Below, one piece after another: positions 9,107 to 24,980 of a stretch of 54,789 bases of DNA. The translations under genes and the position numbers were made by a program. Origin of the DNA: an uncultured Methanosarcinales archaeon (lineage in GTDB: Archaea > Nanobdellota > Nanobdellia > Woesearchaeales > CAZKBD01); assembly GCA_964550945.1 (NCBI GenBank), contig CAZKBD010000003.1:1-54789 (forward strand). The letters run 5' to 3'. Every line of letters begins with the position of its first letter. Within the stretch, counting starts at the first letter, position 1. The notes beneath the pieces were generated by a model. The model was not told the origin of the DNA and ran no database searches. It worked only from the letters and a program-made list of their open reading frames with translations.

Positions 9107-9201
9107 TGCGAGGGACGAGGTTCGAACTCGCGTAGGCACTAAGCCACAAGGCCCTCAACCTTAGGCATTTTTTGCCCGTTTGGCCGCTCCGGCACCCTCG
9201 C
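9107..9201 (-). tRNA. tRNA-Leu(GAG) with 11-nt intron at 29/30 (intron 9161-9171)
   Basis: Acceptor GCGAGGG/CCCTCGC+A, long variable arm, T-arm GCGAG-TTCGAAC-CTCGT; removing AAAATGCCTAA restores CAAGG-TTGAGGG-CCTTG. Confidence 0.9.
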
Positions 9202-11589: not shown

Positions 11590-11628
11590 GAAACAAATAT
11601 CCATTTATAAAGCTATCGGAATAAAAAG

Positions 11629-11791
11629 GGTAGCTGCCGAGACTTTCAACCTCTCCGCAGATTCGTTGGATTGAGCGAATGCGAAATCCAACTTAAGCGC
11701 ATTCTTTGCTCATTTCTTCTGCGAAGAAATGTTTGAACTCGGTCTAGGAGATCCACAGTCTCCAGTGCTGCCAGGTTACACCACAGCCACC
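11629..11791 (-). tRNA. tRNA-His(GTG) with encoded G-1 and an 89-nt T-loop intron at 59/60 (intron 11643-11731)
   Basis: G-1 plus GTGGCTG/CAGCTAC plus C73; anticodon arm GGAGA-CTGTGGA-TCTCC; T-arm CCGAG-TTCAAA^T-CTCGG; full BHB motif. Confidence 0.92.
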
Positions 11792-11967
11792 ATAATCTAA
11801 TAGAGAATTCCTGTGTTTTATAAGTTTTTCTGATTGTCATTACTAAATTGAGTGATAGTTATAATCTCATCAACTATATACTAAGAGAGTATATGGCCTA
11901 ATCCAGGTATTATAAAATAGACTGGTTAATCGGGGGATTTATAAGTGCAGATGCAACCCCAAACAAA

Positions 11968-12528: not shown

Positions 12529-12642
12529 TGCTCATAGTGCTATTCTAGCTGCCAGTAAGAACTGATTGAACATGGGAGATTAGATGCTCTATTGATACTA
12601 TCCCCCTAGACCCCTACGCCTATACTACTATCTCTTTTTTAT

Positions 12643-12733
12643 ATGTCAGAAATCGCAGGTGCACGCTCTAATACTTTAGCTCAGAACAAACTAGCGATTT
12701 CTGAGCATGCTCAAAAATCTTCGATTTTTGACA
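12643..12733. repeat. Double-hairpin palindromic element, copy 2
   Basis: ATGTCAGAAATCGC...GCGATTTCTGAGCATGCTCAAAAATCTTCGATTTTTGACA; overlaps the 3' end of CDS 12691-13197. Confidence 0.85.
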
Positions 12734-13197
12734 AAATTATAGTGCAGGTAAGGCAGAATAAAAGATATAGCATAAGTAAATCCGACCAATAATAAGCTGT
12801 GCTGATCGTTATTTAATCTCAAAGTGATCTCCAGGCTGTTTGTTATGACTGTGATGATATACAAATTAATTATAGCAAGTATGGGCACATAGAAAATTGC
12901 GATCACTTTGCGCGTATTTGCCATATTTTCCATGTCTCTTACCAAAATGTCAAAAAGAAGGCCAAAACAAACGCCTAATAAGGCGATAATCGCGTATAAA
13001 GTGTAGCTTTTCAGAACAAGCAGCACCGGTATGAGCATTACAGAGGCAGCAATATTGCCTAAAATAACAACTATAATCACAATCCAATAGATTGACTTAT
13101 CTAAATTCTTAATTGCTTTGGTTTTTTCTGTCTCTGCTTCTTTTAGTATCCTTACAGCTTTCTCAACTTCCGGTTTATCCCATTTTCTCTCGATCAT
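12691..13197 (-). CDS. Membrane protein (4 TM) in the minD operon
   Basis: Hydrophobic helices; start overlaps the minD stop. Confidence 0.8.
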   Translation of the reverse strand: MIERKWDKPEVEKAVRILKEAETEKTKAIKNLDKSIYWIVIIVVILGNIAASVMLIPVLLVLKSYTLYAIIALLGVCFGLLFDILVRDMENMANTRKVIAIFYVPILAIINLYIITVITNSLEITLRLNNDQHSLLLVGFTYAISFILPYLHYNFVKNRRFLSMLRNR

Positions 13198-17851: not shown

Positions 17852-18214
17852 AGGGCAGGAATAAGCCACCTTCTGTAGGAACCTAAAAAACCCGTAGGTT
17901 TTCTTAGGTCCTAAAATCCAGTAGATTTTAGGAACCTTGTGCTTATATAGGATAAGCGATGCTCCTTCTTAGTATTTAACTAAGCCTCTTAAATAGAGTT
18001 GCACTGGTTAGGGCTCACCGTTTCATCCTTTCCTTTAAGAACGTCTGCTTGTTATCTTGCTTTTGTCGCCAAAAGCTTCGAGAGCATCATTCTCCTTAAA
18101 GGCGGTCTCGTTTCTGAGTGGTTGCCTTCCATTACTGGAACTCGTTAAGTAACCTTTTTGAAGTGGGTGGACTTTCCTCGGTTAATGAATAACCGGTAAC
18201 TAAGCTCCTGCCCT
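17852..18214 (-). ncRNA. rnpB: RNase P RNA
   Basis: P1 AGGGCAGGA/TCCTGCCCT; CR-I GAGGAAAGTCCACC pairs with CR-V ACAGAAGGTGGCTTA (P4); AGAAA and TGAAA conserved regions. Confidence 0.92.
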
Positions 18215-24630: not shown

Positions 24631-24791
24631 ATGAATAGTAAATCATAAGTTATATATAAGCTTTACTATTCTAGCAATAATGATCTCTAGCAAGCCTTTA
24701 AAAATTCGCATCAATTGCCCCAGTAAAATCTTATTCTCCACCAGTGTATCTCACTAGTGGATTGCTGTCAGTTATGTAATCAAAGGGAAAA

Positions 24792-24876
24792 TGAGAACAA
24801 GAAAATCGACCCGAGCGAAGCGAGCATACATACAGTCTATTGATTAGGGGTGATCGATTTTTTTTGATTGTTATCA
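24792..24876. repeat. Hairpin enclosing CGAGCGAAGCGAG
   Basis: AAAATCGA/TCGATTTT stem around a GA-GC-GAA-GC-GA mini-hairpin (24812-24824). Confidence 0.55.
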
Positions 24877-24980
24877 AGAAGAGAATTCTTTTAGCTAGGA
24901 GCGCTTTTTATTGTGTTGTATCTATATAGTGATGACAAAACAATAACATTTAAATACTGTTATAAACCTCCTATCCAATT

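Follow-up and report, generated by a model that had tools for sequence, protein, structure and literature searches.

Short hairpin units dispersed in intergenic DNA are known from bacteria as REP/BIME mosaics and as IS200/IS605-related PATEs, and insertion of the IS200/IS605 type leaves no target duplication. In archaea, the tRNA-Trp intron carries a C/D box sRNA, and the 2010 study by Fujishima et al. in Mol Biol Evol 27:2233 is said to concern the transposed tRNA introns of the Thermoproteales. According to two reviews and a meeting report, similar BHB introns occur in this group in tRNAs of different identity, which implies copying, and the mechanism of the transposition is stated to be unknown (PMC4090602, PMC4033280, PMC10714607). 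Sugahara et al. (2012; PMC3293823) describe a tRNA gene disrupted by the integration of a 1.8 kb mobile element that encodes a recombinase. Non-canonical BHB introns of archaea are reported in three papers to be cut by a broad-specificity EndA (PMC4090602, PMC4033280, PMC5829648), and the DPANN EndA is given in one of them as an alpha4-type enzyme with an extra loop (PMC5829648). A 2026 preprint on Asgard archaea asked whether introns there arise by copying, through mobile elements or by reverse transcription, and arrived at no general route for intron gain.

The window analyzed here is the whole stretch of 54,789 nt from the assembly of an uncultivated groundwater archaeon (G000, ~92% complete; its contigs are given C-numbers), and its tRNA-His gene is interrupted at 59/60 in the T-loop, which we take to be a previously listed tRNA intron position. 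It is probable that this is a functional tRNA-His whose genuine BHB intron is one copy of an element that has been copied between sites, in a variant of the known archaeal tRNA-intron transposition. As with the transposed introns of the Thermoproteales, close introns lie in different tRNAs of one genome (85/87 and 79/87 identical positions, in relatives of this archaeon). Unlike those introns, the element is hosted by a DPANN order, a single family is bound to 59/60 with one anticodon-loop exception, the family has a conserved two-hairpin core, and copies occur outside tRNA introns, flanked by target duplications; our literature search found no report of non-intron copies flanked by such duplications. 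The arrangement described for the Sugahara element, in which a full tRNA is preceded by an orphan 5' tRNA fragment and foreign DNA separates the two, is matched on C31, C21 and C161 of G000 and at loci L065 and L076, although the insert differs from the one described there in being 56–119 nt long and non-coding, and in belonging to a family that also forms spliceable introns. Like REP/BIME and PATEs, the hairpin units of G000 form mosaics, and Y1-transposase genes are present, with no link to Y1 shown; unlike the IS200/IS605-related PATEs, the elements have target duplications and double as introns predicted to be spliced. A structured RNA inside a tRNA intron recalls the tRNA-Trp case, its release by splicing being predicted here, and differs from it in having no C, D, C' or D' boxes. 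Finally, the hBHBh' motif at a non-anticodon position of tRNA-His resembles that of non-canonical archaeal BHB introns, and, as for those, the host lineage is reported to have tRNA genes that are disrupted and predicted tRNA sets that are incomplete.

With the intron deleted in silico (Table 1), ARAGORN calls a 74-nt tRNA-His(GTG) with the T-loop TTCAAAT, while the unspliced gene is missed both by ARAGORN and by Rfam (16.6 bits in a permissive search). The TATA-like box is kept as TTATAA in a metagenome relative. The 163-nt precursor has an MFE of -60.3 kcal/mol (z -3.83; 0 of 200 shuffles were as good), and its MFE fold is an hBHBh' motif, with an outer helix of 5 bp (CCGAG/CUCGG), a central helix of 4 bp (UUCA/UGAA), an inner helix of 13 bp, and two 3-nt bulges, AAC and AGU, on opposite strands. 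In-silico splicing and this fold bear out the proposal of an earlier note on this DNA that a tRNA-His with an 89-nt T-loop intron at 59/60 lies here, and the complete BHB it had listed, helices and bulges alike, is the motif of the MFE fold.

Table 1. Features of the tRNA-His locus, as positions in the window; the TATA-like box and the T-run are assigned by sequence reading only.
Feature	Position	Strand	Remark
TATA-like TTATAAAAC	11816..11824	minus	~29 nt upstream of G-1
tRNA-His(GTG) gene	11629..11791	minus	G-1 encoded, CCA not encoded
5' exon, G-1 to A59	11732..11791	minus	ends with T-stem strand CCGAG, then TTCAAA
BHB intron, 89 nt, at 59/60	11643..11731	minus	member of the two-hairpin element family
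Hairpin 1, CATTTCTTC-GCA-GAAGAAATG	11711..11731	minus	5' arm doubles as the 5' strand of the BHB inner helix
Conserved AGCAAAGA	11703-11710	minus	directly after hairpin 1
Hairpin 2, GTTGGATT-TCGCATTCGCTC-AATCCAAC, 8 bp, then CGAA	11665..11692	minus	module B of the element family
3' adaptor: inner-helix 3' strand TCTGCGGAGAGGT + TGAA	11645..11661	minus	TGAA pairs with T54-A57 of the T-loop
3' bulge AG^T	11642-11644	minus	after the 3' adaptor
3' exon	11629..11642	minus	T60, T-stem strand CTCGG, acceptor strand CAGCTAC, C73
T-run CTTTTTATT	11620..11628	minus	directly after C73; likely terminator

In the proposed splicing route, the outer helix would come from the host T-stem, the 4-bp central helix would form between the 3'-terminal TGAA of the intron and T54-T55-C56-A57 of the T-loop, bases that are conserved universally, and the 5' arm of the intron would pair with its 3' segment as the inner helix. 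A single EndA would then cut in both 3-nt bulges, at AA^C and at AG^T, and ligation of the exons by RtcB would regenerate TTCAAAT; the anatomy of the precursor and the gene content of G000 point to both steps. G000 has one EndA gene (214 aa, with N-terminal and catalytic domains, PF01974 and PF02778, in one ORF) and encodes RtcB (433 bits). The predicted spliced junction is GAGTTCAAA joined to TCTCGGCAG, and the predicted circular junction of the excised intron is GGTTGAAAG joined to CATTTCTTC. Across 22 sequencing runs, a few words of the window occurred in one RNA run, with no RNA cover, which speaks neither for nor against splicing; the four runs compared with the region gave DNA contigs only and no joint across the intron.

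The intron belongs to a family with a non-coding core, in the order hairpin 1, AGCAAAGA, hairpin 2 and CGRA, to which the intron form adds a 3' adaptor (a purine-transition copy of the 3' arm of hairpin 1) and then YGAAAG. When the 89-nt intron was run by BLAST against the order (Woesearchaeota/Nanoarchaeia members; 400 genomes besides G000), 14 genomes from 12 families gave E < 1e-4 (one of the 14, G315, is unpublished); 342 of the 401 genomes of the order lack a match at E <= 0.05. Scanning 185,579 species genomes for an exact pattern returned 32 archaeal loci in 18 assemblies, together with eight bacterial matches, which fall in what seems to be coding sequence and look fortuitous. That CATTTCT and GAAATGAGCAAAGA do not vary in alignment A1 is due solely to the search pattern, which demanded both; conservation of the element is supported independently by the BLAST result. 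Introns of 79–110 nt at exactly 59/60 account for 17 of the 32 archaeal loci, making 18 with tRNA-His, and after in-silico removal of the intron a tRNA spanning the junction is recognised by ARAGORN in 17 of these 18. At least ten tRNA identities carry the element at 59/60 (His, Trp, Ala, Glu, Leu, Arg, Pro, Ser, Cys, Gly, Val), and one family member sits instead in the anticodon loop.

Pairings in the 18 introns were counted per sequence, the MAFFT alignment A1 having its 3' segments out of structural register. The central helix combines TTCA with TGAA or TGAG in 12, TTCG with CGAA in five, and TTCG with TGAA in one: the T-loop base and the intron base covary, and this sequence covariation indicates that the helix is under selection. 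The hairpin 2 stem is maintained through many sequence versions. Only 6 of the 18 MFE folds show a strict BHB, which counts against the proposed reading. Beyond the T-stem, everything the motif needs is either the universal tRNA TTCRA or borne by the intron, and the element is therefore workable at 59/60 in any tRNA, which is why it is found there in many identities and near-identical in unrelated tRNAs of one genome. Rfam returned no family for the intron at gathering or permissive thresholds. Three other classes were tried and rejected: a C/D box sRNA (no CUGA in the intron and no Rfam snoRNA match above noise), an intron with a homing endonuclease (the intron has 89 nt only, and the ATG in the conserved ATGAGCAAAGA meets a stop after 6 codons), and a coding role for ATGAGCAAAGA itself, where, given the same stop, an in-frame run into the NMNAT-like gene at L064 is a single case.

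Within G000, standard tools find only 12 tRNAs. A strict BHB scan combined with ARAGORN over the whole genome reduced 74,986 candidates to tRNA-His, tRNA-Ala and one dubious call; a T-loop-specific scan was needed, and it yielded at least 11 T-loop introns of diverse sequence, which had hidden at least 11 further genes. Neither BLAST nor nhmmer found a second copy of the exact element in G000. A marginal match on C42 (E = 0.3) is a real relative: a tRNA-Ile there has module B in its T-loop intron, with similarity between the His and Ile introns at the module level only. C31, C21, C161 and C120 bear related ectopic copies, accompanied by duplications of tRNA ends. The hairpins of the intron thus have genomic counterparts (module B on C42, related elements on C31 and C120). 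On C6, the T-loop intron of a tRNA-Ser contains a unit of the abundant palindromic repeat of G000, which has a TGAGCA junction in common with the intron; ~36 short-hairpin composites of the genome are joined at GAGCATGCTC, and Y1-transposase genes are present.

The earlier note had proposed that palindromic elements colonise BHB introns. The T-loop introns, the ectopic copies, the repeat unit on C6 and the turnover at L106 described below therefore support this in part: the element is found in many tRNAs and outside introns, and it is the accompanying idea of regulation by folding that found no support. Also proposed was that the motif of hairpin 2 recurs in intergenic DNA at position 24812 of the window. 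The sequence CGAGCGAAGCGAG is present there, in the loop of a different structured element of ~150 nt that has two copies, and what it shares with the hairpin-2 loops of relatives is only the ~11-nt loop motif CGCTTCGCTC, a weak link.

Because G000 holds no second exact copy, the evidence for copying comes from relatives and from the sister sub-type in G000. In one relative, the introns of tRNA-Ser (L080) and tRNA-Gly (L094) are identical at 85/87 positions and their 5' exons at 29/52, and the compensatory central-helix base is one of the two intron differences; in another pair from a single genome, tRNA-Ala (L069) and tRNA-Cys (L088), the values are 79/87 and 27/53 (the exon comparison took 45 nt of the 5' exon). 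On this sequence evidence we conclude that the element has been copied from one site to another and may in this sense be called mobile, with the reservation that introns already in place could come to look recently copied through gene conversion.

Copies outside T-loop introns carry traces of their own. Flanking direct repeats that beat all 200 shuffles occur at 11 of 15 such copies and at 0 of the 18 T-loop introns. They are 14–101 nt long and duplicate the adjoining gene end, with verified targets at the 5' ends of cytidylyltransferase-like (NMNAT-like) genes, the 3' ends of SRP54 genes, 5S rRNA and tRNA ends. At the thresholds used, no BHB surrounds 13 of 14 non-intron copies; the ectopic copy at L096 has a weak score-6 match (outer 4, inner 2). 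In the five 5'-end cases (two NMNAT-like genes and the tRNAs at L065, L076 and on C31), the duplicated target starts 0–6 nt from the gene start, about where the transcript should begin, and in the tRNA cases the orphan 5' fragment ends in the D-loop, at positions 19–22. The ectopic element always starts exactly at the end corresponding to the intron 5' splice site, and its 3' end is ragged. A-rich tails are seen in 5 of 12 copies (pooled A 0.41 vs. 0.32 in the background).

Several kinds of mobile element were compared with these features. A classical MITE or DDE derivative was rejected, as the flanking repeats are not of fixed length and no terminal inverted repeats were read at the ends, and so was a palindromic element of the IS200/IS605 type (PATE/REP), for which the hairpins are present but the left flanks vary and targets are duplicated. 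By the marks of a SINE-like retroposon, the target duplications are variable in length, the A-rich tails are mixed, and RT is present in 3 of 5 genomes. Neither RT nor Y1 transposase was retained as the mobiliser, RT occurring in three and Y1 in four of the five element-bearing genomes, with no association shown. Adenine mutagenesis of the DGR kind between duplicated SRP54 ends was set aside, since the differences read there are not adenine-specific, and a search for viral carriers with two patterns gave 0 matches.

A more specific and rather doubtful reading is that the T-loop introns are mobile RNA-level elements and the ectopic copies the footprints of their movement. The excised linear intron would be ligated to a cleaved 5' RNA fragment, for example by RtcB, and the product would be reverse-transcribed and integrated at the homologous locus; the exact 5' end, the ragged 3' end and the duplication of a 5' fragment form the pattern expected from such a ligation. 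If true, this would be the first lead on the mechanism by which archaea gain tRNA introns, and it would explain the preference for 59/60, as the palindromic TTCRAA of the T-loop would let one intron dock in any tRNA.

It is possible, if on the unlikely side, that the element is a functional small RNA, protein-binding or trans-acting, matured via tRNA processing, an alternative compatible with copying. Its release by EndA from T-loop introns, and by RNase Z where it directly follows a tRNA 3' end, is conceivable at a similarly low level, as is the view that its conservation reflects function and not mobility. Conservation across at least 12 families extends to primary sequence (AGCAAAGA and the regions flanking hairpin 2) and to the two hairpins, and the 5' end of the element coincides with a processing site, either the 5' splice site or, at L030 and L070, the base directly after the tRNA 3' end. 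Ectopic copies at 5' gene ends also lie just downstream of a promoter and an orphan 5' fragment, and would therefore be transcribed. Against a conserved function, however, stand the absence of C/D boxes and of an Rfam match, the lack of the element in most genomes of the order, a copy number per genome that varies from 0 to at least 6, and the antisense orientation of several ectopic copies relative to the host gene.

It is very unlikely that we are dealing with an ordinary non-canonical intron passed on by vertical descent, its likeness to others reflecting an ancient intron shared by many tRNAs or convergence on the demands of the 59/60 site and not copying. Among the tRNA-His genes of 18 relatives, 13 have no intron and four have a 59/60 intron of unrelated sequence, and a near-identical tRNA-His from a metagenome (L106) has an unrelated 32-nt intron at 59/60; the intron is thus not invariant among relatives, a comparison that the earlier note had suggested. 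These unrelated introns at one site mean that the site itself may be old, and the diversity of the T-loop introns in G000 is likewise consistent with vertical descent. Inheritance alone does not fit the tRNA-Ser and tRNA-Gly introns, near-identical while exon identity is at chance level, nor the different tRNA identities that host the same element in different genomes, the absence from tRNA-His in most relatives, or the copies outside tRNAs with their flanking duplications. The 27-mer spliced junction of an intron-less allele had 0 matches in metagenome contigs, and no presence/absence polymorphism was seen in these contigs or in the runs compared with the region.

We regard as highly improbable a third alternative, in which mutually exclusive folds (hairpin 1 or the inner helix; the hairpin-2 loop or the TGAGC..GAATGCG segment) act as a switch that regulates tRNA-His splicing. 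The pairings that had suggested competition are all present: hairpin 1, a perfect hairpin (9 bp, -7.4 kcal/mol when folded alone), shares its 5' arm with the inner helix and so excludes it, TGAGC..GAATGCG is complementary to CGCATTC-GCTCA, and hairpin 2 exists as the 8-bp pairing of GTTGGATT with AATCCAAC. Pairing of the 5' arm with one partner or the other is possible in 18 of 18 introns, hairpin 1 is favoured or comparable in six of them, and by computation it forms ahead of the 3' partner in the nascent transcript, being the preferred fold only before that partner is transcribed. In the full tRNA-His precursor, however, the inner helix has a mean pair probability of 0.88 and hairpin 1 one of 0.00, and forcing hairpin 1 costs 3.3 kcal/mol; in these computed folds the two are uneven competitors and the splice-competent fold dominates. 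Both pairings thus exist as the earlier note had it, without being evenly matched, and its suggestion that alternative folds modulate splicing finds the thermodynamics against it. Hairpin 1 is moreover equally present in non-intron copies, where there is nothing to splice, the TGAGC/GCTCA plus GAATGCG/CGCATTC pairing, as read from the sequences, is kept in the closest relative (L099) and not in L064, and no ligand or protein partner is known. What had looked like a competitor belongs to the element itself, as its conserved 5' hairpin, and is no dedicated regulator.

Weakest of all, and extremely improbable, is a tRNA-His pseudogene, disabled when a repeat element inserted into it: the gene escapes standard tRNA finders and the insert belongs to a dispersed family, but the BHB is exact, the exons, the encoded G-1:C73 pair, the TATA-like box and the T-run are intact or in place, no second tRNA-His was found in the G000 assembly, and host T-loop and central-helix base covary across the family.

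How archaea gain tRNA introns is an open question, and this family may help to show how such introns spread. It offers what prior studies lacked: a recognisable conserved core, a fixed and universal docking site, near-identical copies in unrelated tRNAs, and ectopic copies that sit at defined ends of genes and have duplicated their targets, which together make the route of arrival testable. Furthermore, tRNAs that seem to be missing from DPANN genomes may be an artefact of annotation, their genes being hidden by T-loop introns.

The tRNA-His gene of the window is interrupted in its T-loop by an intron that forms a complete bulge-helix-bulge (BHB) splice motif, and every detail given for it in the earlier note matches the sequence and the minimum free energy (MFE) fold. 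In that fold, the outer helix is the T-stem (CCGAG/CUCGG), the central helix has 4 bp (UUCA/UGAA), the bulges are AAC and AGU, and the inner helix has 13 bp; the precursor reaches -60.3 kcal/mol (z -3.83), and 0/200 shuffles fold as well. A TATA-like box lies ~29 nt upstream, and a T-run directly follows C73. The unspliced gene is missed by ARAGORN and by Rfam, and ARAGORN calls tRNA-His once the 89 nt are deleted. Elsewhere in the host assembly, G000 (1.97 Mb, 36.6% G+C, 177 contigs, rated 92% complete), no second tRNA-His was found. G000 encodes one EndA (214 aa, N-terminal and catalytic domains), which cuts BHB motifs, and RtcB, which joins the ends; the intron is presumably spliced in vivo. 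An archaeal RNase P RNA marks the window as archaeal, the host being a DPANN archaeon of Woesearchaeales type, and the sequencing runs containing it are mostly groundwater metagenomes.

Features of the window, of G000 and of related loci. C-numbers are contigs of G000, other G-numbers are other genomes of the order, and L-numbers are individual loci read in relatives or metagenome contigs (L031 = L066, L029 = L067 and L040 = L098 in sequence).
Feature	Location	Strand	Details
tRNA-His(GTG), encoded G-1	window 11791-11629	minus	sequence reading; ARAGORN after intron removal
89-nt intron directly 3' of A59	window 11643-11731	minus	sequence, splice motif
Archaeal RNase P RNA	window 17852-18214		
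Class-II-like tRNA (Leu/Ser type)	window 9107-9201	minus	95 nt; intact T-arm, paired acceptor stem
Palindromic composites (2)	window about 405-575; 12641-12735		
~150-nt element	window 24724-24891		second copy at C42:13847-14007
Second intron family	C5:23777-23886; C42:14612-14718		the two introns share this family
tRNA-Ile T-loop intron	C42		module B (CAGTCAAGTGGGAC...GTCCCACGAAC), preceded by another type of hairpin 1, CTTAGGG-ACTGCA-CCCTAAG
CTTAGGG sub-type	C31		upstream of tRNA-Gly; an orphan repeat of that tRNA's 5'-most 21 nt precedes the element
CTTAGGG sub-type	C21; C161		after orphan tRNA fragments, 19-20 nt
CTTAGGG sub-type	C120:1607-1790		antisense, after tRNA 3' end; 14-nt duplication, 74-nt insert
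tRNA-end repeat	C43:7597-7950		last 14-15 nt of tRNA repeated after 236-nt insert
Y1-ORF-RT module (L103-L105)	C153:45-2359; C146:1-2587; G266:C112:10655-13537		short contigs in G000; G266 is of another family
L080 / L094	one genome		Ser(TGA) / Gly(TCC); intron 85/87; 45 nt of 5' exon 29/52
L069 / L088	one genome		Ala / Cys; intron 79/87; 45 nt of 5' exon 27/53
L064, L090	two genomes		first 37-43 nt of cytidylyltransferase-like (NMNAT-like) gene duplicated
L032, L033, L079	three genomes		SRP54 3' end duplicated; element antisense
L081			5S rRNA 3' end duplicated
L065, L076			tRNA 5' ends duplicated
L070, L042			tRNA 3' ends duplicated

The 5' arm of the intron, CAUUUCUUC, pairs either with the nearby GAAGAAAUG as hairpin 1 (-7.4 kcal/mol alone) or with the distal UCUGCGGAGAGGU as the inner helix. 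These and the other hairpins listed in the earlier note are present in the sequence, as is its opposite-strand reading of 11665-11692. Its proposal that the alternative folds modulate splicing finds no backing: in the full precursor the mean pair probability is 0.88 for the inner helix versus 0.00 for hairpin 1, forcing hairpin 1 carries a penalty of 3.3 kcal/mol at 37 °C, and no computation points to regulatory use. In the computed fold of a transcript ending before the distal partner, hairpin 1 does form, and it could therefore act as a transient kinetic trap.

The intron belongs to an element family found across the order. With the 89 nt as BLAST query, 58 of 400 further genomes in the order give matches at E <= 0.05, and 14 of these, from 12 families, at E < 1e-4. 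The unpublished genome G315 is among the 14, and the other results draw on published genomes only. The matches split into two modules: module A, hairpin 1 with AGCAAAGA, and module B, in which a hairpin (hairpin 2) built like AAGTGGGATT-TCGCATTCGCTC-AATCCCAC precedes CGGA or CGAA. A scan of 185,579 species genomes with the exact pattern CATTTCT-N(3-10)-GAAATGAGCAAAGA returned 40 loci, 32 archaeal (18 assemblies) and 8 bacterial; the latter lie in apparent coding regions and look like chance. CATTTCT and GAAATGAGCAAAGA are invariant in the alignment of family members (A1) only because the pattern demanded them, and the independent evidence for conservation is the BLAST matches. The stem of hairpin 2 is kept throughout its variants (GTTGGATT, GTGGGATT, GTTGGGC, GTGGGGC, GTGGCAC, GGGTCAC, GGAGGATAC), so that hairpin 2 is, by this comparison, conserved as a structure. 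The 3' adaptor of larger introns approximates a direct repeat of the 3' arm of hairpin 1 plus AGCAAAG (16/19 positions in L071, by eye). The 28-nt T-loop intron of L059 (G313:C30) consists only of a hairpin-1-like stem-loop and GCGAAAG, and may represent the family in a minimal or ancestral state.

Family introns lie at exactly 59/60 in 17 of the 32 archaeal loci as well as in the tRNA-His of the window, with lengths of 79-110 nt, and their in silico removal yields an ARAGORN tRNA across the junction in 17/18. The hosts are tRNAs for His, Trp, Ala (2), Glu (2), Leu, Arg, Pro (2), Ser, Cys (2), Gly, and Val, with two further doubtful calls; genes with further introns may be miscalled. Two introns of one genome resemble each other much more closely than do their host tRNAs (pairs L080/L094 and L069/L088), and the closest relative of the window intron (L099, 74/91) sits in a different tRNA of another genome. 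We infer that the family spreads by copying. Among the 18 T-loop introns, the closing base of the central helix tracks the host T-loop: TTCA occurs with TGAA or TGAG (n = 12), and TTCG with CGAA (n = 5) or TGAA (n = 1). Of the two differences that separate L080 from L094, one is this base, which provides direct evidence that selection acts on the splice motif once an intron has been copied. The T-stem of the host serves as the outer helix and the central helix draws on T54-R57, present in every tRNA, with all remaining parts of the motif brought by the intron; position 59/60 would suit the element, and be favored, because this docking site is universal.

Among 18 full-length tRNA-His genes read from 40 order-mates, 13 are intronless, one has an anticodon-loop intron only, and in four the intron at 59/60 is unrelated in sequence. 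In L106, a metagenome contig, the exons are nearly those of the window tRNA-His, apart from a compensatory acceptor-stem change, and the 59/60 intron is a different 32-nt hairpin. The tRNA-His intron is therefore not invariant, and its hairpins have related copies elsewhere in G000 (C42, C31, C21, C161, and C120), both in keeping with the earlier note. One relative's tRNA-His (L018, G002:C147) has three apparent insertions: in the anticodon loop, immediately after the 5' strand of the T-stem, and at 59/60.

Standard tools find only 12 tRNAs in G000. A scan specific to the T-loop yields 12 candidate genes whose 59/60 introns measure 18-110 nt, and ARAGORN accepts 10 of them after intron removal (11/13 with the tRNA-Ala on C88). 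With at least 11 such genes (on C5, C6, C31, C37, C42, C71, C86, C88, and C167) beyond the 12 callable tRNAs, standard finders miss about half. Neither ARAGORN nor Rfam calls the class-II-like tRNA of the window, which therefore probably carries a short non-canonical intron. The inserts on C43 and C120 both begin TTCATGCTATTGAG. G000 also has two copies of a conserved three-gene module, in the order Y1 (IS200/IS605-type) transposase, an ORF of ~290 aa that matches nothing in Pfam, and a reverse transcriptase (380-440 aa).

Outside T-loop introns, the archaeal pattern loci comprise 14/32 non-intron copies and one anticodon-loop intron (L091). When left and right flanks were compared by Smith-Waterman (200 shuffles per locus), repeats beating all shuffles were found in 11/15 of these copies versus 0/18 T-loop introns. 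The repeats span 14-101 nt, the left copy ending at -10 to +8 from the element's first base and the right copy starting 44-119 nt past it. The duplicated DNA is the end of the adjoining gene; in L064 and L090, insertion follows GGTTYCAA(A)CC, which is T-loop-like. Repeat copies are far closer to their partner in the same genome than to counterparts in others, so the ectopic copies appear to have arisen independently and rather recently, at sites that recur. Of the 14 non-intron copies, 13 gave no BHB in a search around them and L096 gave only a weak match (score 6); their 3' parts are without the adaptor of the intron form, and A-rich tails occur in only 5/12.

G000 contains ~36 mosaic composites of palindromic units (ATGTCAGAAA..TTTCTGAGCATGCTCAAAAACC..GGTTTTTGACAT), and 40 GAGCA[TC][GA]CTC sites were counted in it versus an estimated ~3 by chance. 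Each composite has two long hairpins joined by a 10-12-nt palindrome, and variants include minimal 50-nt forms and forms with nested hairpins. In the window intron, the TGAGCA after hairpin 1 and the GCTCA closing the hairpin-2 loop are halves of this junction palindrome, and in L062 a CAGAAA..TTTCTG unit occupies the usual place of hairpin 1. The suggestion that palindromic elements colonize BHB introns finds support in the tRNA-Ser T-loop intron on C6, which contains one repeat unit. Kinship of the intron family with the repeats is likely. The intron hairpin had also been equated with a motif at 24812. That motif lies in a hairpin loop of the ~150-nt element, whose two copies share 88% identity and differ by compensatory changes in two of the stems, and which matches no Rfam family in the window at gathering threshold; the C42 copy precedes a tRNA-Ile gene by ~30 nt. 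The reverse complement of the motif, CTCGCTTCGCTCG, does resemble loops that relatives have in hairpin 2 (TTCGCTTCGCTCA in L065 and L080), but a likeness of 11 bases is too little to judge kinship by. The ~150-nt element is a structured element different from that of the introns.

While the splice anatomy, the cutting and joining genes, the family, near-identity across isotypes, central-helix covariation, and flanking duplications are results of computation, the route of copying is a matter of probability. Of three routes weighed, DNA-level insertion at staggered cuts of variable spacing ranks first, though at less than even odds; it fits the flanking duplications, but the element has no terminal inverted repeats and the duplication length is not fixed. 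RNA-mediated copying seems unlikely: the 5' boundary of the element is exact at the splice-site end and the 3' boundary ragged, targets share microhomology with CATTTCT at the 5' junction (L064, L066, L070, and L090), and duplications begin 0-6 nt from the gene start in 5/5 5'-end cases, but a reverse transcriptase was found in only 3/5 genomes, A-rich tails are not a constant feature, and this route does not account for the antisense copies at 3' ends. Site-specific recombination of a miniature circle with a copy of the gene end would fit the gene-end targets and tandem arrays (L042, L062, L095, and L100/L101), and resembles in miniature the model of Sugahara (2012; PMC3293823), but no recombinase is linked to the element, and this route is rated about as unlikely as the RNA-mediated one. 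Other or mixed routes take up the remaining likelihood.

Introns of Thermoproteales are described as transposed between tRNAs, by a mechanism that reviews and a meeting report call unknown (PMC4090602, PMC4033280, PMC10714607). A 2026 preprint on Asgard tRNA introns finds no general route of arrival, and PMC5829648 treats the EndAs of DPANN archaea together with incomplete sets of tRNAs. Full-text literature searches, which covered few subscription papers, turned up no description of this element family, of portable introns specific to the T-loop, or of intron copies at ectopic sites flanked by target duplications, and an earlier account may exist in print. A T-loop intron as such is ordinary for G000. 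On the sequence comparisons made here, the tRNA-His intron is unusual in belonging to a conserved family that has evidently been copied and has left footprints outside tRNAs.
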